In this document: positions 27,119 to 60,746 of the stretch, piece after piece
How the letters are laid out: every line of letters begins with the position of its first letter
Numbering within the stretch: position 1 is the stretch's first letter
From: a phage
Assembly (NCBI GenBank): GCA_021525805.1
Contig: GCA_021525805.1_3940.1
Length of the DNA: 64,000 nucleotides
Strand: one strand, 5' to 3'
Translations under genes and position numbers: made by a program
The notes under the pieces: model-generated
Told to the model about the DNA's origin: nothing
Database searches by the model: none
What the model saw: only the letters and a program-made list of their open reading frames with translations

Positions 27119-27309
27119 TACTCAATATCAATAAGTTCTTGTGCAATGCTTTTCAGATTACCTTTCAAGAAAACCTTCTCAGAACCTGAAAGAGATGAAT
27201 TGTCAATTAACCTGTTCATTCTCTCAAACAACTTCTGCTTACGATTCTTGATAGTTTCCTTTGAAGCACCTTTCATCATCGCTGCATGGGTTCTTCCACG
27301 GTGACTCAT
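27100..27309 (-). CDS. Hypothetical small basic protein
   Basis: 69 aa ORF. Confidence 0.3.
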   Translation of the reverse strand: MSHRGRTHAAMMKGASKETIKNRKQKLFERMNRLIDNSSLSGSEKVFLKGNLKSIAQELIDIEYWRHQK

Positions 27310-36464: not shown

Positions 36465-37511
36465 ATGGAGAAGTACACATTAACAAAACTTCCCGATTCA
36501 GTTACACATGTTTTTATTGACTCTGACAGTATTGCCTATAAAGGTGCTTGTGTAGTTGAGAAAGCAAAGTATAAATATGTCAATAAACTCACAGCAGAAG
36601 AGTCTGAACCATTTGATAATGCGAAAGATGCTGCAAGATGGTTAGCAGACCAGAGAATCCTTGTGGAAGAGCTTGGCCTGACATTTGATGAAGATGAATG
36701 GGAAAGACAGACTTGGAAAGAAGCTAAGAGTGAAAAAGAAGCTATCATGGCTACTCAACAGGTGCTTCAGGAATGGCTTAAGGTTGTTGGTAAAGAAAGA
36801 ACTTGGGTAGGTTATTTAACAGAGAAGGGTGTGCATAAACATAAAGACATTAAAGGTCTTGAGCACCAATATCAAGGTAATCGTAAAGATGCTGTCACAC
36901 CAACACACTTAGTTGCTTGTCGTGAGTATCTTCTGTCAAGACCAGAGTTCAAATTGATTCTTGATGGATTTGAAGCTGACTCTATCGTAATTGCTAAAGC
37001 TGAAAAGATGGGTAAAAAGGCTGCCTTAATGAGTATTGATAAAGACCTTCGACAAGCTGAAGGGACTTACTGTATTGATATGACTTATGAAAAGTCGCCT
37101 TTGATTTTCATTGCTGATAACAACGTTGGTGAAATTTGGGATTGTCCAATAAAATCGACACCAAAAGCTAAGAAGACAGTTGGGGTAGGTTTTAAATTTC
37201 TTTGTTACCAAGCTGTGGCTGGTGATAATGCGGATAACTATTTTGGTTTAAAGGGCGTTGGTAAGGCTGCTGTAATGAAAGCCCTTGAAGGTAAAACTAC
37301 TTACAAAGAGTGTCTTGATGCTATCTATGAACTTTATGCTAAGAAAGAGTCATACACTTATGTCTCGTGGGATGGTCAAACAATTACCAGAACACCTTTA
37401 GAGTTAATGCAGCAACACTTTTTCTTAGCTTATCAGGAAAGAAACAAGAAAGACGATTTTACTTTTGATAAGTATGGGTGGACACCAAATGTTAACTCAA
37501 CAAACTCTTAA
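36465..37511 (+). CDS. 5'-3' exonuclease / flap endonuclease (RNase H-like)
   Basis: N-terminal acidic cluster VFIDSDSIAY; helix-hairpin-helix-like GLKGVGKAAV. Confidence 0.55.
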   Translation: MEKYTLTKLPDSVTHVFIDSDSIAYKGACVVEKAKYKYVNKLTAEESEPFDNAKDAARWLADQRILVEELGLTFDEDEWERQTWKEAKSEKEAIMATQQVLQEWLKVVGKERTWVGYLTEKGVHKHKDIKGLEHQYQGNRKDAVTPTHLVACREYLLSRPEFKLILDGFEADSIVIAKAEKMGKKAALMSIDKDLRQAEGTYCIDMTYEKSPLIFIADNNVGEIWDCPIKSTPKAKKTVGVGFKFLCYQAVAGDNADNYFGLKGVGKAAVMKALEGKTTYKECLDAIYELYAKKESYTYVSWDGQTITRTPLELMQQHFFLAYQERNKKDDFTFDKYGWTPNVNSTNS

Positions 37512-37980
37512 AGAGTACCTACATTATGACCCCGAAACAGGGGTCTTTACTTGGATTAAGAAGTCTGCTAGACACACAAAAATTGGCTCTGTTGCAGGTA
37601 CAAATTTAAAAGGTTACACCAGAATTTATTTGTTTGGTAAGGGCTATTATGCACATACACTAGCTGTTCTGTATATGGATGGTTACCTCCCTGAGTGTGT
37701 TGACCATAAAAATCATGTAACACTAGATAACCGCTGGGTAAATCTTAGAGCATGTACGTTATCAGAGAACCAATGTAATAGATTGCTCAATAAGAACAAT
37801 AAATCAGGTGTTAAAGGTGTGTACTACAAAAAACAGTATGGTAAGTGGTCTACACAGATAACTTTTAAGAAGAGGGTCTACTTCTTCGGCAACTATGACA
37901 CTATTGATGAAGCAGCAGAGGTTGTAAATAGGGAACGTCAACGTTTACACAAAGAGTTTGCTAATAAAGGTGATGAATGA
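37489..37980 (+). CDS. HNH homing endonuclease (paralog 2)
   Basis: HNH-type motif VDHKNHVTLDNRWVNLR; shares a 30-nt identical stretch with paralog 1; track start 37465 is TTG. Confidence 0.6.
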   Translation: MLTQQTLKEYLHYDPETGVFTWIKKSARHTKIGSVAGTNLKGYTRIYLFGKGYYAHTLAVLYMDGYLPECVDHKNHVTLDNRWVNLRACTLSENQCNRLLNKNNKSGVKGVYYKKQYGKWSTQITFKKRVYFFGNYDTIDEAAEVVNRERQRLHKEFANKGDE

Positions 37981-38477
37981 GAAAAATAAAAGGTTTTGGC
38001 AATTGCCCTGAATATGGACATTGGGTTTCACTATGTGGTGAAGTTGACCCAGCAAAGCACTTTGGTTTTGTCTACCTAGTGTACTGCAAAAAGACTGGAC
38101 AGTACTATTTGGGTAAGAAACAGTTTAATAGCGTGACCAAAAGAAAAGTTGCTGGTAAGACTCGGAAGAAGGTAGTCACTAAGGAGAGTGATTGGATGAC
38201 TTATGAGACTTCTTCTGAGTATATTAAAAAAGATATTGAGAGCTTTGGAAAAGAATTTTTTGACTTTTACATTATCCAGACCTACTACACAAAAGGTGGC
38301 CTAGTCTATGGTGAAGCAAACCTTCAACATAAATTCGATGTAATGACAAAAAGGATTGACTCGAAGCTCAGACTCTTCTACAATGCCAATATTGCAGCAA
38401 TTAAGTTTATTACTAAAGAAACTTATGAAGATGCTGAAAAAAGAATCCATAAGGTAATGAAAGCAAATCGTGCTTGA
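37977..38477 (+). CDS. GIY-YIG endonuclease-like protein (candidate)
   Basis: GFVYLVYCKKTGQYYLGKK resembles GIY...YIG motif spacing. Confidence 0.4.
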   Translation: MRKIKGFGNCPEYGHWVSLCGEVDPAKHFGFVYLVYCKKTGQYYLGKKQFNSVTKRKVAGKTRKKVVTKESDWMTYETSSEYIKKDIESFGKEFFDFYIIQTYYTKGGLVYGEANLQHKFDVMTKRIDSKLRLFYNANIAAIKFITKETYEDAEKRIHKVMKANRA

Positions 38478-44266: not shown

Positions 44267-45463
44267 ATGAACAAAGTACAGATTATTAAAAAGAATGGCT
44301 CACTCGAAGAACCTGATATCAAAAAAGTTTTAGCAGCAGTCACAAAGTCAGCTAATAGGGTTGGGTATAAAGAACTTCCACCAGATGTTACCCAAGCTCT
44401 TGAGTCAGCATTTATGAGAATTCTGGTAAAGTCCACTAAGCAGAATAATTTGCTAATTTCTGTAAATGATATTCACAGTATTGTTGAGGGTGCTTTGGCA
44501 GAAGTCAATCACGAGATTTATGAGTCTTACTCAACATATAGAAATTACCGTAAAGAAGTTGCTCAAAATTGGGATGAACTCTACCAGAAGACCAAAGATA
44601 CACTCTTCTTAGGTGACAGAGAGAATGCTAACTTTGACAGCAGTTTAATTTCTACAAAAGGTTCAATTATTCGTGGTTATCTGACTAAAGAAATCTTTAA
44701 ACAGTACCACTTAACACCAGAGGAACTTGAAGCCATTGAAAAAGGGTTTATCTATATCCATGATTTAAGAGACCTAATTTTTGGTGGTATCAACTGTTGC
44801 CTGTTTGACATTGGTAAAGTCCTGAAAGGTGGCTTTGAAATGTCTGGCATTGAATATTGTGAACCGAAGTCTGTACTATCAGCCTTACAGGTTATTGGTG
44901 ACGTAGTTCTTTCAGCAACTGCACAGCAATTTGGTGGCTTTACTTTAGCAGAGATTGATAAGGTACTTGTGCCGTATGCTAAGAAGTCTCTACGCTATCA
45001 TGCTGAGAAAGCAGCATCTTACGGTATTCCTAAAGAACATTACCACAATTATGTCATGGAGCAGCTACAGATTGAACTGACTCAAGGTTTCCAGTCACTT
45101 GAAATGAAACTAAACACTGTACCTTGTAGTCGTGGGGATTTTGCATTTACAACTTTGACATTCGGGTTACTTGACTCAGATATGTCCAATGAAGATAACC
45201 GACTACAATACATGATTGCAAGCACTCTCCTAGATGTTCGTATGAATGGACAAGGTAAGAGCAAGAAACCTGTTGTATTCCCTAAACTGGTTTATATTTA
45301 TGACCAGAAGAGACACGATGAGAATATCTGTCAAGGACACCTGTACAGTAAAGCTATAGAGTGTTGCTCTAAAGCGATGTATCCAGATTTCTTAAGTGTA
45401 TCTGGTCATGGTGCTGTAGCAGAGGCTTTTGAGCGTTCTGGCAAGGTAATTTCGCCGATGGGT
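44267..45463 (+). CDS. nrdD: Anaerobic ribonucleotide reductase, exon 1
   Basis: N-terminal ATP-cone-like segment; exon ends ...ISPMG at GGT (U at -1), then in-frame TAA that begins the intron. Confidence 0.7.
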
Positions 45464-46205
45464 TAACAAACTCTATAGCTCATCTAAAACGTGCCTAAAC
45501 AGGGAAACTCTACAGATGTAGACAATCCTGTGCTAAATGATGTAAGATGTAAGAAACTATATAACATAGGAGTATTACATGCCAAATTATCATGTTACTG
45601 AAGACGGAAGAGTCTTTAGAGAAAATGGTGTAGAGCTTACACAGTGGAAATCCAACACTGGGTATATGAAAGTAAAGTTTTACGGTAAGAAGAATCGTGA
45701 CATGTATGTCCATAGGTTAGTTGCTGAGAAATATGTACCTAACCCAAACAATCTTCCAATTGTAAAACACAAAGATGATAACAAACTGAACAACCATGCT
45801 TCTAACTTAGAATGGGGAACTCATTCTGAGAATGTTAAAGAAGGCTATGAGAATGGTTGCTACAAGTTTTGTAAGCGTTCATATGCTGTGAAGGCCACAC
45901 ACAAAGTGACAAAAGAAGTTATTGCTGCCAAGTCAATACGAGAGTTATCCAATATACTCGGATATAATCGCAAGACTATCTCTTCAATATTGAAGGGTGT
46001 AAAAGAGCATAATAACTTTGAACATGAATTTGAATACATCTAAACGCCGAACGACTAACCGTGATGAATGTAGCGGTGTAGGGTCAAGCGACTCGAAATG
46101 GTACGCTACTTAGAAATAAGTAGAAGATATAGTCTGGACTTACTGGCGACAGTAAGCAGCTTGAATAAAGCGGGGTAAGCTTAGCGAACTTACCTGAACA
46201 ACAAG
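45464..46205 (+). mobile_element. Group I intron in nrdD carrying an HNH endonuclease ORF
   Basis: 742 nt interruption; boundaries GGT|taa... and ...aag|TGT (omega G) restore ISPMG-CRAFL across the junction. Confidence 0.6.
45579..46043 (+). CDS. Intron-encoded HNH homing endonuclease
   Basis: HNH-like segment (HKDDNKLNNHASNLEWGTHSEN); ATG with GGAG RBS inside the intron. Confidence 0.6.
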   Translation: MPNYHVTEDGRVFRENGVELTQWKSNTGYMKVKFYGKKNRDMYVHRLVAEKYVPNPNNLPIVKHKDDNKLNNHASNLEWGTHSENVKEGYENGCYKFCKRSYAVKATHKVTKEVIAAKSIRELSNILGYNRKTISSILKGVKEHNNFEHEFEYI

Positions 46206-47153
46206 TGTAGAGCATTTTTATCACCATACCATAACGAATATGGTGAAGAGTTTTATGTCGGTCGTGCTAACATTGGTGCTGTATCTTTGAACTTACCAAT
46301 GATTTACCAGTATTCTAAAGAGAATGGTTTAGATTTCTGGAAAGAGCTTGATAAGTACCTAGAGATGATTCGCAGCTTCCACAAGAAACGTTACGAAATG
46401 ATTGCTAATATGCCAGCAAGTTCTAACCCTCTTGCATTCACACAAGGTGGTCTGTACAAAGGGAATAAGAAACCTACTGACAAGGTTGGCTGGGATATCG
46501 TGAAGTCCTTCACAGCTTCTTTTGGGGTTACTGCGCTTGATGAGCTATCTGTTCTTGCTGAAGGTAAACGACTTCATGAAGTTGGAAGCTGTAGTTTTGC
46601 ATATGATGTTCTGGAATATATCAACATGAAGACTGAAGAGTTTAAAAATGAAGACGGTTTCTTATATGCAGTCTATGGCACTCCAGCAGAATCACTTTGT
46701 GGAACTCAGCTAAAACAGTTCAGAGATATGTTTGGCGTTATCAAAGGTGTTTCTGATAAGGAATACTTTACAAACAGCTTCCATATGAATGTTGCAGCAG
46801 ACATTACACCATTTGAGAAGCAGGACTTAGAAGAACCCTTCTTCCATATCTGTAGAGGTGGTAGAATCCAGTATGTAAGAGTAGCTAACCCAGAAAACTT
46901 ATCAGCACTTAAAAGTTGTATTACAAGAGGGATGTTGAAAGGTTTTTATCAGGGACTTAACTTTGACTTAGCAATCTGTGAACATTGTGGTAACAGACCA
47001 AAGGCTGATGTTGAAGAATGTGAGGTTTGTCATTCACACGATATCTCTGTGATTAACAGGGTGTGCGGGTACTTGTCATTCACAAAAATTAAAGGTCAGT
47101 CTCGAATGAATGACGCAAAAATCGCTGAGATTCGTGACAGGATTTCTATGTAA
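46206..47153 (+). CDS. nrdD: Anaerobic ribonucleotide reductase, exon 2
   Basis: Begins CRAFLSPYHNEYGEEFYVGRANIGAVSLNLP; C-terminal glycyl-radical motif RVCGYLSF. Confidence 0.65.
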   Translation, partial: CRAFLSPYHNEYGEEFYVGRANIGAVSLNLPMIYQYSKENGLDFWKELDKYLEMIRSFHKKRYEMIANMPASSNPLAFTQGGLYKGNKKPTDKVGWDIVKSFTASFGVTALDELSVLAEGKRLHEVGSCSFAYDVLEYINMKTEEFKNEDGFLYAVYGTPAESLCGTQLKQFRDMFGVIKGVSDKEYFTNSFHMNVAADITPFEKQDLEEPFFHICRGGRIQYVRVANPENLSALKSCITRGMLKGFYQGLNFDLAICEHCGNRPKADVEECEVCHSHDISVINRVCGYLSFTKIKGQSRMNDAKIAEIRDRISM

Positions 47154-48451: not shown

Positions 48452-48937
48452 ATGAATTACATGGAGATTAGACCATTTGACACAGCTAATGGTGAAGGGG
48501 TTCGTGTAAGCCTCTTCGTAGCTGGTTGTAAGCATCACTGTGAAGGCTGCTTTAACAGGGAGTCTTGGAAGTTTAATGCTGGTAAAGAGTTTACTTATGC
48601 AAACCTCTACGGAATCATCCAACTAATGGGTGATAATGCTGTCAGTGGTTTGTCAATACTTGGTGGAGAACCTCTGGATGATAGAAATATTCAAGAGGTT
48701 ACCAATATATGTAAACGTATTAAAACTGTTTACCCAGAGAAGTCTATCTGGCTCTGGACAGGTTTTCAGTTACACGAAAAGATTCACTTAGATGTGATGA
48801 AATATGTTGACGTGGTGATTGATGGTAAGTATGATTCATCTAAACCAACAGTTAAACCGTATCGTGGTTCTGATAACCAAAACCTCTGGAGAAAAGAGTA
48901 TGGGTGGCAAGGTGATTGTCAGTGGAGAGCCGAGTAA
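48452..48937 (+). CDS. nrdG: Anaerobic RNR activating protein (radical SAM)
   Basis: CKHHCEGC cysteine cluster near N-terminus; ~160 aa; near nrdD. Confidence 0.7.
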   Translation: MNYMEIRPFDTANGEGVRVSLFVAGCKHHCEGCFNRESWKFNAGKEFTYANLYGIIQLMGDNAVSGLSILGGEPLDDRNIQEVTNICKRIKTVYPEKSIWLWTGFQLHEKIHLDVMKYVDVVIDGKYDSSKPTVKPYRGSDNQNLWRKEYGWQGDCQWRAE

Positions 48938-49060
48938 GTCTCGTCGTAAAGTAGGTTATCGGTAAAGGACACTTTACAATGTTCTACAGAACAAACTTAG
49001 CCGTTTGTGTCACTGAAAAGAACTTAAAACATTTTGTGAAAAGATTGAGAGAGATACGAA

Positions 49061-49324
49061 ATGGGACTCTGGAACAGTTTTAAATCAAAAGTAAAAGCAG
49101 CACTAGCTTCATTAGGTATGCTCACTGGGGTTGATGTGGCTCATCTTATGCAGAACTTTAAGATGGATGAGAAGCTGGCTAATGAGATTATGAAAAGTAT
49201 CTATGTAGGTCGTGGCAAAGGTGGTAAGAAACAAGCCCACCGTCCGTCTGGTGCAGCAGCTATTAAACGAGCAGCTAAGAAAGCTCGTAACCGTAAACGT
49301 AATAAGAAGGCTAAATATTCATGA
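49061..49324 (+). CDS. Hypothetical protein with basic C-terminus
   Basis: 87 aa; KKARNRKRNKKAK tail. Confidence 0.3.
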   Translation: MGLWNSFKSKVKAALASLGMLTGVDVAHLMQNFKMDEKLANEIMKSIYVGRGKGGKKQAHRPSGAAAIKRAAKKARNRKRNKKAKYS

Positions 49325-49641
49325 GCAAAGTTTATAACACTCGCAAATTACAGATTTTCGTACTGTGCCAGTTTATGGCTAAAGAATATAACTTCTACTA
49401 TTGTGGTACAGGTTTTATTAGCGATGATGATGGCTCATACCTACCATTCAAAGAAGCTGTAAAACTCTTTAATGAAGAGAAAAGCTCTAAGAAAGATATT
49501 GAAAAGGTTAAACTAACCTACAGCAAGAAAGATAAGAAGATTATCTGCCTAGATAACTTTGTAAAAGTTACTGGGGAAGCAAAAGAGTTTATGGATGAGA
49601 GTGAGATTTCATTCACAAGCATCTTGAAAGTAGCTCAGTAA
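49321..49641 (+). CDS. Hypothetical protein
   Basis: 106 aa coupled ORF followed by terminator. Confidence 0.3.
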   Translation: MSKVYNTRKLQIFVLCQFMAKEYNFYYCGTGFISDDDGSYLPFKEAVKLFNEEKSSKKDIEKVKLTYSKKDKKIICLDNFVKVTGEAKEFMDESEISFTSILKVAQ

Positions 49642-49653
49642 ACAGATACTATA

Positions 49654-49682
49654 GGGGAACTGTAAAGGTTCCCTTTTTTATT
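49654..49682 (+). terminator. Rho-independent terminator
   Basis: ggggaac/gttccc hairpin followed by TTTTTT. Confidence 0.55.
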
Positions 49683-49769
49683 TTGGAGATAATATGTATC
49701 TGTCAAACCTGAAACGTTCTGCTGCAATATCAGTAACAAACGTAACCTTTGATTAAGAGAGAGAAAACT

Positions 49770-50651
49770 ATGAAAACATCTATCCGTGTTACAGTTCATT
49801 CACCAACTAAAGGGACTCATGAAGAAGAGTTTAACATTATCCAATTTCCTTCTGGTGAGATTGGTGGACACTTTTCACAAGAGCTTGTTGATTTTACTGC
49901 TTATGCAGCATCATCCATCAACAACGTGATTATGATTGTAAAAGGCTATGATAAAGACACACTGTTTGCTGTAGCACTTGCTAAAGAGGCAATTGATAAT
50001 TTAGTTCCTCATAAGTATGCTATGAAGACTGTCATCTTTTACTATCTGCCAAACGCACGATACGACCGTCACATGTTTAAAGGTGATGCAGCAGCTTTGA
50101 AAGTGTTTGCACAACAGGTTAATGCAATGGGTTTTGATGCAGTCTGTGCAGTTGACCCTCATAGTTACGTTCCAGATAACCTGTTTAACTGCTTCCAGAG
50201 TATTCCTCAAAAGGAAATTGCAGTCCACTATGCAAATGACCCACTGGTTGATTACTTAGTAGCCCCAGATGCAGGTGCTTCTAAGAAGATTGCAGAGACT
50301 GCTAAAGAGGTGGATAAACCATACATCACAATGTCTAAAGTGCGTAACCTTAAGACTGGTGAAATTACTGGTATGCGAATCCTTGATGATGTTGATTTGA
50401 CAGATAAAACCGTCATGATTCTTGATGATATCTGTGATGGTGGCCGAACCTTCGTAGAAGCAGCAAAACATCTTCGTGAAGCAGGTGCAAAACGTGTGGA
50501 ACTCTATGTAACACATGGTATCTTCTCTAAAGATGTTGAAAACCTTCTTGACAATGGCATTGACCACATCTACACTACAAACTCTTTAGGGGAAGCTAAA
50601 GACCGTGGCTTAACACATTATGGTCAAGTTACTGTAGCAAACCTTGATTGA
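49770..50651 (+). CDS. Ribose-phosphate pyrophosphokinase-like (PRPP synthetase family) protein
   Basis: Type I PRTase motif VMILDDICDGGRTF; ~300 aa; directly upstream of NAMPT-like gene. Track start 49749 is TTG. Confidence 0.6.
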   Translation: MKTSIRVTVHSPTKGTHEEEFNIIQFPSGEIGGHFSQELVDFTAYAASSINNVIMIVKGYDKDTLFAVALAKEAIDNLVPHKYAMKTVIFYYLPNARYDRHMFKGDAAALKVFAQQVNAMGFDAVCAVDPHSYVPDNLFNCFQSIPQKEIAVHYANDPLVDYLVAPDAGASKKIAETAKEVDKPYITMSKVRNLKTGEITGMRILDDVDLTDKTVMILDDICDGGRTFVEAAKHLREAGAKRVELYVTHGIFSKDVENLLDNGIDHIYTTNSLGEAKDRGLTHYGQVTVANLD

Positions 50652-50660
50652 AAGTTCATA

Positions 50661-50681
50661 GGGGCTTAAAAGCCCCATTTT
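50661..50681 (+). terminator. Hairpin, weak terminator
   Basis: ggggctt-aaa-agcccc then ATTTTG. Confidence 0.35.
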
Positions 50682-50696
50682 GAGAGAGATTAAAAG

Positions 50697-52478
50697 ATGA
50701 CTAAATCACTTTATGCAGTACCAGCAGGTCTTAATGCAGATGCTTACAAGGCATCACATATATATCAGTATCCAGATGCTACACAATATCTTATGTTGAA
50801 CCTGACACCACGTAGTGATAAATGGTTTAACAGCCCTTTGGCAATTGACGGTGTAGTGGCTTTTGGTATTCAACGTTTCGTTAAAGATTACTTGATAGAC
50901 CACTGGAACGCCACTTTCTTTGAACGTGACAAAAAAGAAGCAATTGATGAAATCTTAGAAGTCATGAACGGTGTTCTGGGTAAAGATGCTATCGGTCGAG
51001 AGCATTGGGGAGCACTTCACGACTTAGGTTATCTACCAGTTGAAGTATACGCTGTAGAAGAAGGTACAGTTGTCCCTATGCGTGTTCCAATGATTGTCTT
51101 CCAGAACACTGTTTCAGGTTTCCATTGGGTAGCAGGTTATCTGGAAGATGCTTTCTCTGCTGAGATTTGGAAGGCTTGCACCATTGCAACTATTGCATTG
51201 CACTACAAACGTATCTGTAAGAAGTGGGCTGACCTTACTTGCGACAACGACTTACATTTACCTTATCAGTGCCATGACTTTGCTATGCGTGGTATGTCCG
51301 GCTTTACCGATGACGCATTTAATGCTGTAGGTCACTTAACCAGCTTTAAAGGAACTGATAGCTTCCCTGCTGTATACACGGCTAAACGCATCTATGGACA
51401 GTCTTACCCAATTTCTGATATTGGTAGTTCTGTACCAGCCACTGAGCACTCTGTAATGTGTGCAAACATTGCTTGGGAAGGTGGTAATGAATTGATTGAA
51501 GAGGAAAGACGCTTTAAAGGTGAATTACAAACCTTCCGTCGCTTCTTAACAGAAACTTACCCAACTGGTATTGCAAGTGTTGTTTCAGATACTTATAACT
51601 TCTGGAGAACTGTATCAGTTATATTACCAGAACTTCGTAAAGAGATTATGGAACGTGATGGTAAACTGGTAATTCGTCCTGACTCTGGAGACCCTGTACA
51701 TATTGTCACAGGATACAAAGCAATCCATTTAGAGTGTGCTAAAAAGGCTTATTACGAACACCTAAGTAAGCTGGAAGCCAGCGACACAATGTTGAATGCT
51801 GTTCTGAACATGAAGCTTGAAAACATCAATTATGGTATTGCTGGATGGCTACTGTCAGAAGGCTACGAAATGGTTGTTGACAGAGAAGACTTTGAAGTTG
51901 CTGATACAGTGCTGTTGAAAAATGCTTATATGGTTGGTTCTGCAAACGTTGTAACACGTCCTGTAGCAGAGATTGATGGGGCTATTAAGACCCTGTATAA
52001 CATCTTTGGAGGGACTATCAACTCTAAAGGTTTTAAGGTACTGGATGAACACATTGGCCTTATTTATGGTGACTCTATCACGTTGGAACGTGCAAACGAA
52101 ATCCTGAAGCGTTTGTATGAAATGGGTTTTGCAAGCTCTAACGTAGTGTTTGGTGTGGGTTCTTACACTTACCAGTACATGACTCGTGATACCTTTGCAT
52201 TTGCTGTCAAAGCAACTCTTGCAAGCATTGGTGGTAAAGAGGTTATGCTTGCAAAAGACCCTAAAACAGATAGCGGTGTTAAGAAGTCTGCTTTTGGTGG
52301 TGTAGCACCTATGTGGGATGGTGATAAGCTGAAAGCTGTAGATGGCTATGGATTCCAGAGCTTTGCAGATGTGCTAGAGCATCCAGCTTGCGCTTTACGT
52401 TTAGTCTTTAGCGACTCTGAGCAGTTTGGTTACACAACTCTTGGTGATATTCGAAATAATATTGACAAGCAGCTTTAA
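50697..52478 (+). CDS. Nicotinamide phosphoribosyltransferase-like protein
   Basis: 593 aa, NAMPT-family size and architecture; paired with Prs-like gene. Confidence 0.65.
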   Translation: MTKSLYAVPAGLNADAYKASHIYQYPDATQYLMLNLTPRSDKWFNSPLAIDGVVAFGIQRFVKDYLIDHWNATFFERDKKEAIDEILEVMNGVLGKDAIGREHWGALHDLGYLPVEVYAVEEGTVVPMRVPMIVFQNTVSGFHWVAGYLEDAFSAEIWKACTIATIALHYKRICKKWADLTCDNDLHLPYQCHDFAMRGMSGFTDDAFNAVGHLTSFKGTDSFPAVYTAKRIYGQSYPISDIGSSVPATEHSVMCANIAWEGGNELIEEERRFKGELQTFRRFLTETYPTGIASVVSDTYNFWRTVSVILPELRKEIMERDGKLVIRPDSGDPVHIVTGYKAIHLECAKKAYYEHLSKLEASDTMLNAVLNMKLENINYGIAGWLLSEGYEMVVDREDFEVADTVLLKNAYMVGSANVVTRPVAEIDGAIKTLYNIFGGTINSKGFKVLDEHIGLIYGDSITLERANEILKRLYEMGFASSNVVFGVGSYTYQYMTRDTFAFAVKATLASIGGKEVMLAKDPKTDSGVKKSAFGGVAPMWDGDKLKAVDGYGFQSFADVLEHPACALRLVFSDSEQFGYTTLGDIRNNIDKQL

Positions 52479-52492
52479 AAGTATATGATAAG

Positions 52493-52515
52493 AGGCTCCT
52501 ACGGGAGCCTTTTTA
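52493..52515 (+). terminator. Rho-independent terminator
   Basis: aggctcc-tacg-ggagcct followed by TTTTT. Confidence 0.6.
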
Positions 52516-52531
52516 ATTTCTGGAGAAGATT

Positions 52532-52867
52532 ATGAAAATCAAAGAGATGAACATCAACATCGTCTTAGAGGAACGTTGGGAGAACATCAAGAAACCCGAA
52601 AATGGTCATAAGTTCCTTAACAAAATTTTAGTAGCAGCTAAAGAAGAACTGACTGGTAAGATTGCAGCAGCAATCACAATAAAGGTCTGTGTAAAAGGTC
52701 TTCCAGACAATCACCAATTTGCACTTGACGAGTTTAAAGAAAGCTTCTACAATCCAAATAAACAGATGCTTGAAAGTAACTTTGCAGTATCTACAAGTAT
52801 CGTCCATGACAGAAGCTTTATCCTTTACAAGAATATGAGGGGTGAGTCATGCAAGCATATTGGATAG
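52532..52867 (+). CDS. Hypothetical protein
   Basis: 111 aa ORF. Confidence 0.3.
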   Translation: MKIKEMNINIVLEERWENIKKPENGHKFLNKILVAAKEELTGKIAAAITIKVCVKGLPDNHQFALDEFKESFYNPNKQMLESNFAVSTSIVHDRSFILYKNMRGESCKHIG

Positions 52868-53025
52868 AAATTTTACTGTCACTCGGTAGTGTAGCAGTCC
52901 TTGTTTATCTTCTTTGTAAGTACTTTGCAGAACACAAGAAGTGTGACTACTGTAACGGAGAAGGGTATACAAGAGCAGGTTGTTGCCCTATGTGTGGTGG
53001 TTCTGGTAAAATGTTTAATAAGTAA
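52849..53025 (+). CDS. Small membrane-anchored zinc-finger protein (58 aa; not in ORF track)
   Basis: N-terminal hydrophobic helix then CDYCNGEGYTRAGCCPMCGGSG (two CxxCxGxG-like units). Confidence 0.35.
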   Translation: MQAYWIEILLSLGSVAVLVYLLCKYFAEHKKCDYCNGEGYTRAGCCPMCGGSGKMFNK

Positions 53026-53053
53026 TTTAACAGTAAACTAAGAGGAAAGTGTT

Positions 53054-55420
53054 ATGCGCATGGTAAATGACCACGCAGAAGTGATTAAGAGTTCAACTTC
53101 TTTAGAGACGTCTCAAGCACAGATTACAATGACACCTGAGATGTTCAGCCTTTTGAGTTCTGGTGTATATACCTTTAAAGAAAGGGCAGTGATTCGTGAA
53201 CTGTCATGTAACGCAGTAGATGCTCAGAAAGAAGCTGGAAAAGAGAACATCCCATTCCATGTGCATTTACCTACTCGTTTTGAGCCTTACTTCGAAGTTC
53301 GTGATTTTGGAACTGGATTGACTCATGATAAAGTTATGAGTTTGTACCTAAACTATGGAGCTTCTACGAAGAATGACTCTAATGACTACATTGGTGCAAT
53401 GGGTATCGGCTCAAAGTCACCATTTGCAATTGCTCAGTCATTCACAGTATCTAGCTATGTTGATGGTGTTGTTAATAAGTACTCTGTTTATCTTGAGAAT
53501 GGTATCCCTCAAGTAACTAAGCTGACAACTAACCCAACAAAAGAACCTAATGGTTTAGCTGTACGTGTGGCGGTTGCTGACCACCGTATCTCAAAGTTCT
53601 TTGAAGAAGCTGGGAATGTGTACTCATACTTCACTGTAAAACCAGAAAGTAATATTGAGTACGACGATGTATTAGCAGATATGGACGTCATTGCTCGTGA
53701 AGAAGGTGTTTATGATGCCATGATTCATAAGCACAGCTGGCGTTCTAGTGATAACAGGACAGAGTTTAATGTGGTGATGGGTAACATTGCCTACCCTGTT
53801 AATATGGAAGCATTACTTGGCGATGATTTCTTCAAAGTATTGCCAGAATTTTTCCGTAGGAGCGTAGACCTTGTAAACATCTACATGCCTATTGGTTCAG
53901 TTGCTATTGCAGCTTCTCGTGAAGCATTACAGATGAATGACACGACAAAAAATGTTATCATTGAGGCTACTAAAAAGATAACTGAAGCAATTACAAAGGA
54001 TGTTATCAAGAAAGTTAACAGTCAACCTACACTCATGGATGCTGCACAGGCTTATGCTGAGTTACGTTTGAACTCACGAGAGATGTTTAATGCTGTGTGT
54101 CCAAAGCTAGAGTGGGGAGGCGTTAAGCTTGATTCTCTGGAAGAAGAATTGCTAAACATTCGTCGTGGAATTATCTACGCAGAAGACGGCTCAGTCATCT
54201 ATGAACGTGATGGTAAGGGTAATATTAAGGTTGACAGGAACGGAAACAATATCCCTAAAGTAGATTATCTTTATGACCCAGTTGCTTATGTTAAGTTTAA
54301 CTCTTTAGAAAGTAAGATTCGTGCAACAGCACTTTCCTACACTCAAGAGGCAAGTATGTTCAATATCTTTGGTGCAATGCGTAAAAGCCAAATTGAACAG
54401 TTTTTGTTCGTGATTAATGACCGTCGCAATAAAAACGGTACTGAGAAGACTGTAGGACGAAATCAAATCTTGCGTGGTGCATGTCGAGACTACGCTAACG
54501 AGTCAGGCCTGTTCCATAGATACAATGGTATTGTGTTTGTATTCTCGACTGAAAAAGAGTTAGATGATTTAATCAATCTACACAAACTTGATAAAAGCTT
54601 GTTAAAGATTGTGAAAATGTCTGATAAGGAGCATCATTATCAGCGTAAAGAGGCTGTGAGAGGTGTTGTAAAACTATGGAAAGCTGTTCCAGCAGAATCT
54701 GTAGCTTCATACAAAGAGGTGTCAGAAGACTTAGACACAATTGAAGAACCTCAGCTTTATATTAAGGCAGTTGGTGACACAGTTGATGGTAGATGTTTTT
54801 GCTCATCTCCAGAAGATGTAGCTAAGTCAGTTGCTAATGTTACAGGTAAGACAGTCTATGTTTTCCGAAAAGCAAATTGGAAAAAGATACCAGAAGATTG
54901 GATTGAAGTAGATGAGAAACTCTTGAACGACAGCTTAACTGATGTTCATTGGATTAATCATAACAGGTATATGACACGCATATACATGAATGGTGTTCTT
55001 GACCTTACAAGTAGCTGGATTATTGCCAGAAACTTCACATTCAATAACAGGAAGATTTCTCGTGGTTATTGCTATTCACGGGATACAAACAAAACTATCT
55101 TCCTAGAAGGTAATGAAGAGGCTGTGGAGGCAATGTTCGGTAAAATACAATACGTTGCTGCACCGTTTGCATACACTTACACTGTTAGTAGATTGCAAAC
55201 TTTGAAAGAATGCCTTGACAACGATACAAAACTGTACAATAAAATTAAGAAAGCTGGTGACCGTATGGTCATTAAGGTGACAAACTACCTTTCAAAAAGA
55301 AAACAAGAAAACTTCTTGCTTTCCCATTTAGATTGGAATAAAGTGTCACCTATTGAAGTGAGTAAGTTTTTAGGCTTTAATGTAAAATGTGTTCCAGAAG
55401 GTACAACAGTTTACGATTAA
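53054..55420 (+). CDS. rIIA: rIIA-like protein (GHKL ATPase fold N-terminus)
   Basis: N-box-like RELSCNAVDA and G1-like DFGTGL; ~790 aa; followed by rIIB-sized gene. Confidence 0.55.
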   Translation: MRMVNDHAEVIKSSTSLETSQAQITMTPEMFSLLSSGVYTFKERAVIRELSCNAVDAQKEAGKENIPFHVHLPTRFEPYFEVRDFGTGLTHDKVMSLYLNYGASTKNDSNDYIGAMGIGSKSPFAIAQSFTVSSYVDGVVNKYSVYLENGIPQVTKLTTNPTKEPNGLAVRVAVADHRISKFFEEAGNVYSYFTVKPESNIEYDDVLADMDVIAREEGVYDAMIHKHSWRSSDNRTEFNVVMGNIAYPVNMEALLGDDFFKVLPEFFRRSVDLVNIYMPIGSVAIAASREALQMNDTTKNVIIEATKKITEAITKDVIKKVNSQPTLMDAAQAYAELRLNSREMFNAVCPKLEWGGVKLDSLEEELLNIRRGIIYAEDGSVIYERDGKGNIKVDRNGNNIPKVDYLYDPVAYVKFNSLESKIRATALSYTQEASMFNIFGAMRKSQIEQFLFVINDRRNKNGTEKTVGRNQILRGACRDYANESGLFHRYNGIVFVFSTEKELDDLINLHKLDKSLLKIVKMSDKEHHYQRKEAVRGVVKLWKAVPAESVASYKEVSEDLDTIEEPQLYIKAVGDTVDGRCFCSSPEDVAKSVANVTGKTVYVFRKANWKKIPEDWIEVDEKLLNDSLTDVHWINHNRYMTRIYMNGVLDLTSSWIIARNFTFNNRKISRGYCYSRDTNKTIFLEGNEEAVEAMFGKIQYVAAPFAYTYTVSRLQTLKECLDNDTKLYNKIKKAGDRMVIKVTNYLSKRKQENFLLSHLDWNKVSPIEVSKFLGFNVKCVPEGTTVYD

Positions 55421-59960: not shown

Positions 59961-60746
59961 ATGGGTATTGTAAAAATCATCAATGGTGATATCTTTGCTG
60001 CATTTGATAAAGGTAAGTTTGACATCATTGGTCACGGTTGTAATTGTATGAATTTAATGGGTGCAGGTATCGCTAACAAGATTTCTAAACTTTACCCAAA
60101 AGCATATGATACCGATACAGAAGTTTACCTATATGCAGGTGGCATAGGTCACAAACCCTGTGAAAATTTACTGGGTAATTTCTCTGTAGCACGTTTAGAA
60201 CAAGGCCGTATAGCTAACCTTTACACTCAGCTTAAGACTGGTAAAGATGCCCGATACAGTGCTTTAGAGTCATCTTTGAAGCAGCTTAACAGATACTGTG
60301 AAGTCAATCAGTTGAAGAAAGTCGGGTTACCTATGATTGGTGCAGGTATTGGTGGGCTAGACCCTCAAGCCGTCACAGTTATCATTAATCAGGTGATGAA
60401 GAGTGTAGATGTTTATCTGTATGTCTACGAAGGAGAGATGTACCACAAGTTATGCTCAGGTTGGAATAACTACTGTGAACCAGAATACTTTGCAGGTGTA
60501 GTTGTGTTCACAGATAATGCAGTTACCCTCTTCAGACGAAGAAAAGGTAAGATACATCAGAGTAACCCTCCGGTTGAAAAGATGTCTCTAAGTAACGCTC
60601 TAGTTACCCACCTGTCGAAGAGCAATCACAGGATTGCAGTAACATTTGGTAGTGATGCAGACACTTATATCTATGCAAGAACTGATGAGGATATCGAGAC
60701 AGTTTTCTCTTCTCCAGAAGTTACCTTCTTAGACGCAAAGAACTAA
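59961..60746 (+). CDS. Macro-domain-like protein with C-terminal extension (candidate)
   Basis: N-terminal GDIFAAF...DIIGHGCNCMNLMGAGIANKI and later GLPMIGAGIGGLDP, resembling macro-domain ADP-ribose-binding glycine-rich loops. Confidence 0.4.
   Translation: MGIVKIINGDIFAAFDKGKFDIIGHGCNCMNLMGAGIANKISKLYPKAYDTDTEVYLYAGGIGHKPCENLLGNFSVARLEQGRIANLYTQLKTGKDARYSALESSLKQLNRYCEVNQLKKVGLPMIGAGIGGLDPQAVTVIINQVMKSVDVYLYVYEGEMYHKLCSGWNNYCEPEYFAGVVVFTDNAVTLFRRRKGKIHQSNPPVEKMSLSNALVTHLSKSNHRIAVTFGSDADTYIYARTDEDIETVFSSPEVTFLDAKN

Follow-up and report, generated by a model that had tools for sequence, protein, structure and literature searches.

A Prs-like and NAMPT-like gene pair of a Felixounavirus as a probable core NARP1 operon

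Described NAD+ reconstitution systems

NAD+ reconstitution pathway 1 (NARP1) has been known since 2024 from a phage of the same genus as the one analyzed here, and structures of its enzymes have followed. It was found by knockout of genes 79-80 in Escherichia phage JohannRWettstein (Bas63; MZ501086, bas63_0079 and bas63_0080) (Osterman et al., bioRxiv 10.1101/2024.02.11.579819). According to the text of that preprint, deletion of genes 79-80 sensitized the phage to SIR2-HerA, with approximately 20-fold worse plating. ADPR-PP was seen only when wild-type Bas63 infected SIR2-HerA cells, and the rescue from SIR2-HerA needed neither host pncC nor nadR, as it held in the double mutant. The same text states that the Bas63 Adps resisted purification, so the in vitro chemistry comes from the proteins of Bacillus phage SpbetaL1 (OQ921341, genes 190/191) and Vibrio phage ICP1.

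ADPR as the acceptor is reported as demonstrated for the SpbetaL1 and ICP1 Adps homologues (bioRxiv 10.1101/2024.02.11.579819; PMC13586617), and crystal and cryo-EM structures are available for ICP1 Adps (PMC13586617). The SpbetaL1 Namat was solved as 9W5W and 9W5X, and a preference for ADPR-PP over PRPP is reported for this enzyme (PMC12774641). Namat carries a clamp-helix motif, GS-X-phi-X-phi-X-phi-TRD, in which positions 3 and 7 are aromatic, and a clamp loop that supplies the adenine-stacking residue; this is Arg, or Lys/Tyr followed by the stacking residue, and Bas63 is the paper's own example (PMC12774641).

Several related systems are known. NARP1-AP of Vibrio phage Gary has the order Adps-Adpp-Namat (bioRxiv 10.64898/2026.01.28.702374), and RyDEP-containing NARP1 loci were described in mycobacteriophage DyoEdafos (10.64898/2026.05.28.727677). 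NARP2 of Vibrio phage KVP40 and canonical Prs/Nampt salvage use homologous PRPS-like and NAMPT-like folds and also end in raised NAD+, but they proceed through PRPP and NMN instead of ADPR-PP. In bacteria, NrtR-regulated 'prs-nadV' operons (Rodionov et al. 2008, PMC2330246) and NARP1 homologues (PMC12774641) have been reported.

Operon organization and comparison with Bas63

We analyzed a 64,000-nucleotide stretch of phage DNA, hereafter the window. It belongs to a Felixounavirus and matched 258 phage records, the best of the matches listed being approximately 94-96% identical at the nucleotide level, and it was syntenic with Bas63 across positions 27154 to 64000. The gene pair studied here (Table 1) very probably constitutes the core NARP1 operon of this phage. 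An earlier sequence-only reading had described a Prs-family gene directly upstream of a NAMPT-family gene of ~590 aa and had connected the two with reports of NAD+ reconstitution by such phage pairs. Pfam and PHROG searches agreed with the family assignments (PHROG 619, E 2.6e-98, for Adps; PHROG 448, E 7.8e-201, for Namat), and the link was supported by orthology and synteny with the Bas63 operon. Namat was identical to bas63_0080 at 576 of 593 positions (97%) and Adps to bas63_0079 at 233 of 293 positions (80%), both without gaps. The alleles of the window are catalogued in the supplement of the original NARP1 paper as Namat-associated Adps and Adps-associated Namat, and this Adps allele appears 64 times in its supplementary table. 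Because the pair is a direct orthologue of the Bas63 operon and carries published residue signatures, it is already known, as a close copy of a characterized operon.

Table 1 Features of the operon and of the unlinked Macro gene in the window.
Feature	Position	Strand	Remarks
DUF7390 gene	49321..49641		precedes the operon; ended by the 49653..49685 terminator
Intrinsic terminator 5' of the operon	49653..49685 (hairpin 49653-49675)	+	9-bp stem, 4 GC pairs, T-run
adps	49770..50651	+	Prs-like, 293 aa from the likely ATG
Catalytic Lys190 of Adps	50337-50339		in SKVRNLKTGE, beta-hairpin lysine
Donor 'PP loop' of Adps	50424-50453		DDICDGGRTF
Intergenic hairpin	50661..50681	+	GGGGCT-TAAA-AGCCCC, then ATTTT; between adps stop and namat ribosome-binding site
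namat	50697..52478	+	NAMPT-like, 593 aa
Selectivity-clamp loop of Namat	~50805-50852		K42-W43
Namat insertion 1	51468-51524		aa 258-276, ~19 aa, lineage-specific
Namat insertion 2	51714-51971		aa 340-425, ~90 aa, lineage-specific
Clamp helix motif of Namat	52158-52190		GSYTYQYMTRD, aa 488-498; clamp aromatics Y490, Y494
Intrinsic terminator 3' of namat	52490..52523 (hairpin 52490-52513)	+	10-bp stem, 5 GC pairs, T-run
Macro gene	59961-60746		Poa1p/Adpp-like; 7.5 kb downstream of the operon, unlinked

The operons of the window and Bas63 share genus, gene order, the 45-bp spacer, the intergenic hairpin, and the downstream terminator. The two Namat proteins agree in the clamp motif and in the clamp loop with its K42-W43, and both insertions are shared, at 100% and 97% identity. 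In contrast, the alleles of adps differ in the 5' half, with 65-78% nucleotide identity over 49722-50221 compared to >90% elsewhere, and bas63_0077/0078 (712 bp, upstream of the operon) and bas63_0081 (347 bp, downstream) are missing from the window.

The extent given by the sequence-only reading, 49749-52478, stood for both open reading frames, except that the first gene likely starts 3' of 49749. The adps frame called by the program (49749..50651, + strand, 300 aa) begins with TTG. ATG 49770 is most likely the true start, giving 293 aa, because it is the counterpart of the annotated bas63_0079 start and is preceded by a Shine-Dalgarno-like purine-rich GAGAGAG (49757-49763) 6 nt upstream. The same purine-rich element precedes namat at 50682-50689.

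The two genes are co-oriented, no open reading frame lies between them, and their neighbors are the DUF7390 gene and a PHROG 4262 gene. The pair had been described as bounded by terminators, and a terminator scan of 48900-53100 located exactly two terminator-like sites, both on the + strand and flanking the pair exactly. This count by itself is not significant, being close to the shuffle expectation of 2.3. The upstream site folds at -12.1 kcal/mol (z -1.8) and the downstream site at -16.6 kcal/mol (z -3.2) in RNA fold predictions. Their exact flanking of the pair, together with the identity of the downstream hairpin to its Bas63 counterpart, argues for two genuine terminators. The intergenic hairpin, which the earlier reading did not mention, folds at -12.6 kcal/mol (z -3.0); its stem is invariant relative to Bas63 and its loop and flanks are variable. 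The terminator scan passed over it because only four T residues are present there, and it is possibly a partial terminator or an mRNA-stabilizing element. Rfam (gathering threshold) and tRNA scans of the window gave zero matches. The module lies within an early/middle nucleotide-metabolism block (nrdA/B, nrdD/G, and dNMP kinase).

Residue signatures of Adps and Namat

Adps matched the Pfam families Pribosyltran and Pribosyl_synth and has a PRPS-like two-domain fold. A sequence search of the PDB with Adps returned only Prs enzymes (E 3.6e-17) and no solved Adps structure. The identity of Adps to its studied homologues was only 29-34%, depending on the alignment (29-31% for SpbetaL1 and 33-34% for ICP1). 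The acceptor and catalytic residues of ICP1 Adps, F18, R87, H121, D161, and K185, are nevertheless identical here as F26, R97, H131, D167, and K190, and Lys190 also aligns with K162 of SpbetaL1. The motif VMILDDICDGGRTF, located at aa 215-228 of the 293-aa protein, contains the first six residues of the PP loop, DDICDG, as in ICP1; D212, D213, I214, C215, D216, and F221 of ICP1 correspond to identical D219, D220, I221, C222, D223, and F228. The differences from ICP1 include a few contacts and the N-terminal domain, which is longer in the window protein. F92 and F223 of ICP1 are out of register, being replaced by M102, with F103 adjacent in a flexible loop, and by E230, and the backbone-contact residues of the PP loop are GRT here and AAS in ICP1. 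In ICP1, this remodelled loop (C215-S220, with F221 and F223 as its cap) binds the ATP donor. The SpbetaL1 PP loop reads DDLSSFGGTF.

The PP loop with DDICDG and F228 is clearly unlike the DDMIDTGGT of E. coli Prs. The ribose-5-phosphate loop of canonical Prs, DTGGT, is replaced by DGGRT, and the KRR catalytic loop reads K-V-R. Adps is 293 aa long compared to 315 aa, and the alignment stops before the C-terminal helices of E. coli Prs; the PRPS alpha11-alpha12 filament/regulatory module is therefore missing, and ICP1 Adps is likewise truncated at the C-terminus. Adps passed the Prs subfamily model TIGR01251 (123 bits, cut-off 113) but failed all canonical Prs equivalog models, the best being NF002095 (107 bits, cut-off 296) and the others falling still shorter of theirs. 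NCBIfam contained no model specific to Adps or Namat. The comparison of active-site residues with Prs and ADPR-using homologues that the earlier reading had proposed thus found the catalytic lysine and most of the ICP1 contact residues kept and the Prs equivalogs failed. Adps is accordingly strongly favored, on its residues, as an enzyme predicted to take ADPR as the acceptor.

Namat matched the Pfam families NAPRTase and NAMPT_N. Its top PDB match by both sequence and fold was SpbetaL1 Namat (9w5w/9w5x), and an AF2 model (pLDDT 92.9) superposed on 9w5x with a TM score of 0.95 on the target. SpbetaL1 is the best structural match, and it has the same two-gene order, catalytic lysine, NAD+-contacting residues, and clamp motif. 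All NAD+-contacting residues of SpbetaL1 Namat are conserved here; the conserved positions include D15, Y17, F195, R198, D221, A248, H251, R327, and D329, and further G458, D459, G488, S489, T496, R497, and D498. The Nampt-like catalytic core is also kept, with catalytic H251 and with R327, D221, and F195 as the equivalents of R306, D215, and F189. SpbetaL1 Namat differs in being 47% identical, 491 aa long without either insertion, and in using R40 in the clamp loop where the window protein has K42-W43.

The clamp loop TPRSDKWFNSPLAID, with K42-W43, is identical to that of Bas63. At the clamp-helix motif, solved true Nampts read GAQTYQRNTRD (H. ducreyi NadV) and GGALLQKVDRD (Xanthomonas), so that the two clamp-aromatic positions are Q/R or A/K in these enzymes and Y/Y here. 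This adenine-clamp signature strongly favors assignment of the NAMPT-like protein as Namat, a predicted user of ADPR-PP. The ~90-aa insertion (aa 340-425) is specific to Ounavirinae and forms a confidently folded alpha/beta domain in the AF2 model; no fold relatives of this domain were detected. The closest relatives without insertions are enterobacterial chromosomal genes (47-48% identity) that have the Namat clamp motif, and in one Klebsiella locus (L009) such a gene directly follows an Adps-like gene 39% identical to the window Adps. The bacterial prs-nadV pairs differ from the phage operon in being chromosomal, located next to the ADPR-sensing NrtR repressor, and free of the insertions. 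The role of these enterobacterial pairs is presumably housekeeping, in the recycling of ADPR, and not counter-defense.

Alternative chemistries, accessory factors, and implications

The route ADPR to ADPR-PP to NAD+ is strongly favored for this phage because of the Namat clamp signature, the residues and short C-terminus of Adps, the failed Prs equivalogs, and the absence of a detectable Nmnat in the window. Namat would exchange the pyrophosphate of ADPR-PP for nicotinamide and form NAD+ directly, which would bypass NMN and would not require host NadR or PncC. The view that sequence alone cannot decide the chemistry appears too cautious, given the Bas63 orthology and the published residues by which Adps can be told from Prs, and Namat from Nampt. 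From the genetics and metabolomics of Bas63 and the biochemistry and structures of the SpbetaL1 and ICP1 proteins, we infer by analogy both this chemistry and an anti-defense role, the restoration of NAD+ against NAD+-depleting defenses.

The Pfam, PHROG, and NCBIfam names and the GenBank annotations of relatives suggest classical salvage, in which a true PRPP synthetase and a true Nampt would convert ribose-5-phosphate, ATP, and nicotinamide to NMN, leaving the completion of NAD+ to host NadR or PncC routes. In the absence of ADPR-PP, SpbetaL1 Namat is moreover reported to convert PRPP to NMN in vitro (PMC12774641), and the window Namat may, by analogy, have such a secondary activity. We nevertheless consider this reading very improbable. 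Adps scores below every Prs equivalog cut-off and has neither the DTGGT loop nor the C-terminal module, and Namat has the two clamp aromatics that are missing from true Nampts. As reported, a PRPP/ADPR-PP mixture gave NAD+ only, and Bas63 overcame SIR2-HerA in the pncC nadR double mutant with ADPR-PP accumulating in vivo. The preprint text also states that SpbetaL1 Adps gave no product when PRPP and ATP were supplied; according to the Fig. 2D legend, SpbetaL1 Adps was incubated with ribose-5-phosphate or ADPR (bioRxiv 10.1101/2024.02.11.579819).

The presence of a NAMPT-family gene would also fit a pathway of the KVP40 type, in which the NAMPT-like enzyme makes NMN, a phage Nmnat adenylylates it, and the Prs-like enzyme supplies PRPP; NARP2 occurs in ~1% of phages. 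However, a phmmer search with E. coli NadR and NadD (positive control 2.8e-15) found no NadD- or NadR-like Nmnat among 543 six-frame segments of the 64-kb window of this ~87-kb genome (best E 0.82), and the Bas63 annotation over 30-79 kb contains none. The clamp signature identifies the enzyme as Namat, and the original study, as far as its text reports, found zero phages carrying NARP1 and NARP2 together. Such a pathway is thus extremely improbable here. The neighborhood, with nrdD (44267-47153) and nrdG (48452-48937) immediately upstream and rIIA/B downstream, would suit a general booster of nucleotide metabolism that raises PRPP and NAD+ for DNA synthesis irrespective of immunity. Against this, NARP1 uses up ADPR, of which little is available unless NAD+ is cleaved, and in Bas63 the pathway intermediates are reported only with an NADase defense present. 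The plating cost of the Bas63 deletion is reported on SIR2-HerA, with no defect on defense-free cells described in the preprint text. We therefore regard the booster reading as very unlikely as well.

Returning to NARP1, the window shares the core enzymes with the NARP1-AP and RyDEP loci and encodes an Adpp-family homologue, but no accessory gene lies inside the operon of the window. No Macro-domain Adpp gene was found within or beside the operon, whose flanking open reading frames are the DUF7390 and PHROG 4262 genes, and no RyR-domain match was obtained among 18 window open reading frames scanned against Pfam. The unlinked Macro protein shares 26-34% identity with the Macro-domain phosphatase family (pairwise E 4e-13 to 9e-17) and has a C-terminal extension of ~100 aa; its family occurs in 2851 phage records, many of which lack NARP1. 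An Ounavirinae NARP1 extended in two respects, by Namat insertions with an added function and by the Macro protein acting in trans, is unlikely. In such a system, the insertions might dock Adps for handover of the labile ADPR-PP, regulate the enzyme, or evade a host inhibitor, and the Macro protein might act as an ADPR-1''-phosphate phosphatase. If true, the Macro phosphatase would make NARP1 effective also against NAD+ phosphorolysis of the RES type (aRES). In the same unlikely scenario, the dimorphism of the N-terminal Adps domain might result from an arms race with factors of the host.

In public records and curated HMMs, the two genes still go under the names 'ribose-phosphate pyrophosphokinase' and 'nicotinamide/nicotinate phosphoribosyltransferase', and these names point to the wrong chemistry. 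The clamp motif, the DDICDG loop, the short C-terminus, and the failed Prs equivalogs provide quick checks for relabelling. Where phage therapy is concerned, a phage with this operon is predicted to resist NAD+-depleting defenses (SIR2-HerA, type I Thoeris, DSR, and SPARSA).

Organization of the adps-namat pair

The sequence-only reading had described a Prs-family gene followed by a NAMPT-family gene, bounded by terminators. Both ORFs were present in the ORF list at the positions described (49749-52478), and the quoted motif VMILDDICDGGRTF was found in the product of the first. Pfam and PHROGs agreed with the family assignments: Adps matched Pribosyltran/Pribosyl_synth and 'ribose-phosphate pyrophosphokinase' (E 2.6e-98), and Namat matched NAPRTase plus NAMPT_N and 'nicotinamide phosphoribosyl transferase' (E 7.8e-201). 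The start of adps is most likely the ATG at 49770, giving 293 aa, as this is the annotated start in the orthologue of Escherichia phage Bas63 and GAGAGAG lies 6 nt upstream of it. The same element also precedes namat.

A terminator scan of 48900-53100 detected two sites, each followed by a T-run, that exactly flank the pair. Because shuffled sequences yielded 2.3 sites, the number equals chance and the support comes from placement; the downstream hairpin is, in addition, identical to its Bas63 counterpart, which further supports that site. The stem of a third hairpin, in the spacer, is invariant between the window and Bas63, while its loop and flanks vary. This hairpin may function in transcription attenuation or in stabilisation of the upstream mRNA, which would fix the Adps:Namat ratio.

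Positions of features in the window and of a related bacterial locus
Feature	Position	Strand	Remarks
HNH_3 + AP2 protein	37465-37980		homing-endonuclease type
SegE-like GIY-YIG protein	37977-38477		homing-endonuclease type; adjoins the HNH_3 + AP2 ORF
nrdD, first piece	44267-45466
Group I intron match	45499-45596		Rfam, sub-threshold
ORF between nrdD pieces	45579-46043		154 aa; counterpart of Bas63 homing endonuclease
Group I intron match	45976-46156		Rfam, sub-threshold; 35.3 bits, E 4e-7
nrdD, second piece	46287-47153
Upstream terminator	49653-49675	+	-12.1 kcal/mol
adps ORF	49749..50651	+	300 aa counted from TTG (ORF list)
Spacer hairpin + ATTTT	50661-50681		hairpin 50661-50676; in 45-bp adps-namat spacer; GC-rich, conserved
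namat ORF	50697..52478	+	593 aa (ORF list)
Downstream terminator	52490-52513	+	-16.6 kcal/mol
Macro-domain protein	59961..60746	+	261 aa; 7.5 kb 3' of namat; orthologue of bas63_0095, 'putative phosphatase'
Klebsiella michiganensis locus	L009:4211-7491		outside the window; Adps-like and Namat-like genes, NrtR

Active-site residues of Adps and Namat

The active-site comparison that the sequence-only reading had proposed was performed for both enzymes. Structures of Adps from Vibrio phage ICP1 with ADPR/ATP and with ADPR-PP/AMP (September 2026) revealed that ADPR takes the ancestral ADP and ribose-5-phosphate sites, that a remodelled PP loop and a beta-hairpin bind ATP, that K185 is essential, and that Adps has lost both the C-terminal alpha11-12 module of PRPS and its allosteric sites (PMC13586617). 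We aligned the ICP1 sequence with the window Adps to map these residues, most of which are kept. ICP1 F18, R87, H121, D161, and K185 are identical to window F26, R97, H131, D167, and K190, and D212, D213, I214, C215, D216, and F221 to D219, D220, I221, C222, D223, and F228. ICP1 F92 aligns with M102, which F103 adjoins, F223 corresponds to E230, and the backbone-contact triplet is GRT in the window versus AAS in ICP1. Canonical Prs loops differ: E. coli Prs carries DDMIDTGGT and KRR, whereas the window Adps carries DDICDGGRT and K-V-R. The window protein (293 aa versus 315 aa in E. coli Prs) also stops short of the Prs C-terminal helices. The sole NCBIfam model that Adps passed was the broad one for the Prs subfamily (123 versus 113 bits); it was far under every Prs equivalog cut-off (e.g. 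107 versus 296).

Namat of Bacillus phage SPbetaL1 combines a Nampt-like catalytic core with an adenine 'selectivity clamp' (PDB 9W5W/9W5X), in which a variable loop donating a stacking residue accompanies a helix with the motif GS-X-phi-X-phi-X-phi-TRD, whose third and seventh positions are aromatic (PMC12774641). Published residues were mapped by aligning the SPbetaL1 sequence (OQ921341) with the window Namat. The contacts D15, Y17, F195, R198, D221, A248, H251, R327, D329, G458, D459, S460, G488, S489, T496, R497, and D498 are all conserved or conservatively replaced. The clamp motif is GSYTYQYMTRD, with aromatics Y490 and Y494, and the loop has K42-W43, the same as Bas63, whose loop is the cited example of the Lys-plus-next-residue variant (PMC12774641). 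As negative controls, two true Nampts differ at the motif site: H. ducreyi NadV (9KE8) has GAQTYQRNTRD and the solved Xanthomonas enzyme GGALLQKVDRD. The AlphaFold model of Namat (pLDDT 92.9) best matched a Namat crystal structure (TM 0.95 on the target), followed by NadV and mammalian NAMPT.

The window Namat is ~100 aa longer than that of SPbetaL1, because it carries insertions at aa 258-276 and at aa ~340-425. The larger insertion, predicted with high confidence to form a small alpha/beta domain, is confined to namat of Ounavirinae-type phages (254 records) and to homologues that share the insertion, at identities as low as ~46%. It diverges far faster than the core, e.g. 42% versus 78-91% identity against phiSUSP1. 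The paper describing the Namat structure does not use the word 'insertion' in its main text (PMC12774641).

Assignment to NARP1 and relation to Bas63

NARP1 was discovered in genes 79-80 of Bas63. According to that study, phage lacking both genes formed plaques on SIR2-HerA cells ~20-fold less often and no longer showed NAD+ recovery, rescue did not require host pncC or nadR, ADPR-pyrophosphate appeared as a new metabolite only when operon and defence system were together, and Bas63 Adps itself was never purified (bioRxiv 10.1101/2024.02.11.579819).

The window is collinear with Escherichia phage JohannRWettstein (Bas63, MZ501086) from 27154 to 64000. Adps and Namat align without gaps with bas63_0079 (233/293 identical, 80%) and bas63_0080 (576/593, 97%). 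A 3-kb query around the pair matched 258 phage records, nearly all of Felixounavirus type (Escherichia, Salmonella, Shigella); the best among the listed matches were ~94-96% identical. The supplementary tables of the NARP1 paper contain 64 peptides whose beginning is exactly that of the window Adps, marked Namat-associated (e.g. wV8, SPT-1), and 24 whose beginning is exactly that of the window Namat, marked 'Adps-associated'. Thus, the allele class of the window is already catalogued, and the pair is already known as NARP1.

NARP2, which requires Nmnat, is a most improbable assignment instead of NARP1. Nmnat was not found when E. coli NadR and NadD were searched by phmmer against 543 six-frame segments of the 64-kb window (best E 0.82), whereas E. 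coli Prs retrieved the Adps ORF at 2.8e-15 by the same procedure. Moreover, the original study reports no phage with both NARP1 and NARP2 (bioRxiv 10.1101/2024.02.11.579819). Neither a Macro (Adpp) nor a RyR (RyDEP) gene lies within or adjoining the operon, whose neighbours encode members of DUF7390 and PHROG 4262; thus, the operon is the two-gene core form of NARP1. Overall, the gene pair described from sequence alone is confirmed, and its reading as a candidate for NAD+ reconstitution is supported. Genes, residues, and operon structure were observed directly in the window. By analogy with Bas63 genetics and metabolomics and with SPbetaL1 and ICP1 biochemistry, we infer the chemistry and phenotype of this phage. 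Host NADases would split NAD+ into ADPR and nicotinamide, and Namat would swap pyrophosphate for nicotinamide in its Nampt-like centre to yield NAD+, with the adenine clamped by Y490, Y494, and W43. SPbetaL1 Namat also forms NMN from PRPP in vitro (PMC12774641; bioRxiv 10.1101/2024.02.11.579819).

The 5' half of adps (49722 to 50221 or 50321) shares 65-78% nucleotide identity with Bas63, versus >90% across the remaining operon, apart from a lesser dip (79%) at 50722-50821, the Namat N-terminus. This half is an allele different from that of Bas63, in a mosaic or allelic region. By tblastn, phage Adps separated into two allele classes when compared with the window, with 142 records at 95-99% and 89 at 60-80%. 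The allele used in the experiments, that of Bas63, falls in the class other than the window's; all mapped functional residues are common to both alleles. Bas63 (L005) has extra small genes immediately 5' of adps (bas63_0077/0078, 712 bp, L005:21989-22701) and 3' of namat (bas63_0081, 347 bp, L005:25511-25858) that the window lacks (49686-49769 and 52524-52531). Many other relatives carry a ~720-bp insert within the same 3-kb stretch, seen as two-piece matches. Both operon borders are indel hot-spots.

Other genes, bacterial homologues, and annotation

The Macro domain of the 59961-60746 product (Pfam 32.3 bits, cut-off 22) was 26-34% identical over its full length to NARP1-associated Adpp proteins (E 4e-13 and 9e-17), among them the enzyme characterised from Vibrio phage Gary, and was also similar to TARG1 and DarG macrodomains. 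Its extra ~100-aa C-terminal region had no Pfam match. The family comprises 2851 phage records, including T4-like phages (Tk.4), which are not known to carry NARP1. The protein may act as an unlinked Adpp, as a DNA de-ADP-ribosylase that counters DarT, or in another role. The supplementary files of the NARP1-AP preprint yielded neither an entry named 'Escherichia phage' nor Bas63 (bioRxiv 10.64898/2026.01.28.702374).

The split nrdD, the intervening ORF, and the intron matches indicate that a group I intron carrying a homing endonuclease gene interrupts nrdD; Bas63 nrdD is annotated likewise, as a joined CDS. At the position of the HNH gene, Bas63 lacks ~500 bp (window 37475-37973). Across the 64-kb window, ARAGORN detected no tRNA genes and no Rfam family reached its gathering score. 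A CDS-annotation gap in the Bas63 record (~70.5-72.2 kb) lies past the window's end.

Among Namat homologues without the insertions, those nearest to the window protein are encoded on enterobacterial chromosomes (47-48% identity) and have the clamp motif GSFTYQYNTRD. In the K. michiganensis contig (L009), the Namat-like gene lies directly 3' of an Adps-like gene, whose product shares 39% identity with the window Adps, has the loop DDLCDAGGTF, and has a short C-terminus. An NrtR regulator gene (NUDIX + WHD_NrtR) is oriented divergently to the Namat-like gene. NrtR was shown to repress 'prs-nadV' operons, with ADPR relieving the repression, and the dedicated prs paralogue was termed unexplained (Rodionov et al. 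2008, PMC2330246). NARP1 chemistry would explain this paralogue, and the NrtR-linked operons are probably bacterial, substrate-induced NARP1; no mention of NrtR was found in the NARP1 literature searched.

The NCBIfam equivalog NF006629, 'nicotinate phosphoribosyltransferase', accepts Namat (469 versus 405 bits); under TIGR01251, Adps passes for a 'ribose-phosphate diphosphokinase'. As NCBIfam release 20, Pfam, and PHROGs contain no Adps- or Namat-specific model, automated pipelines will keep assigning the wrong chemistry, and 49770-52478 is an annotation trap for them.
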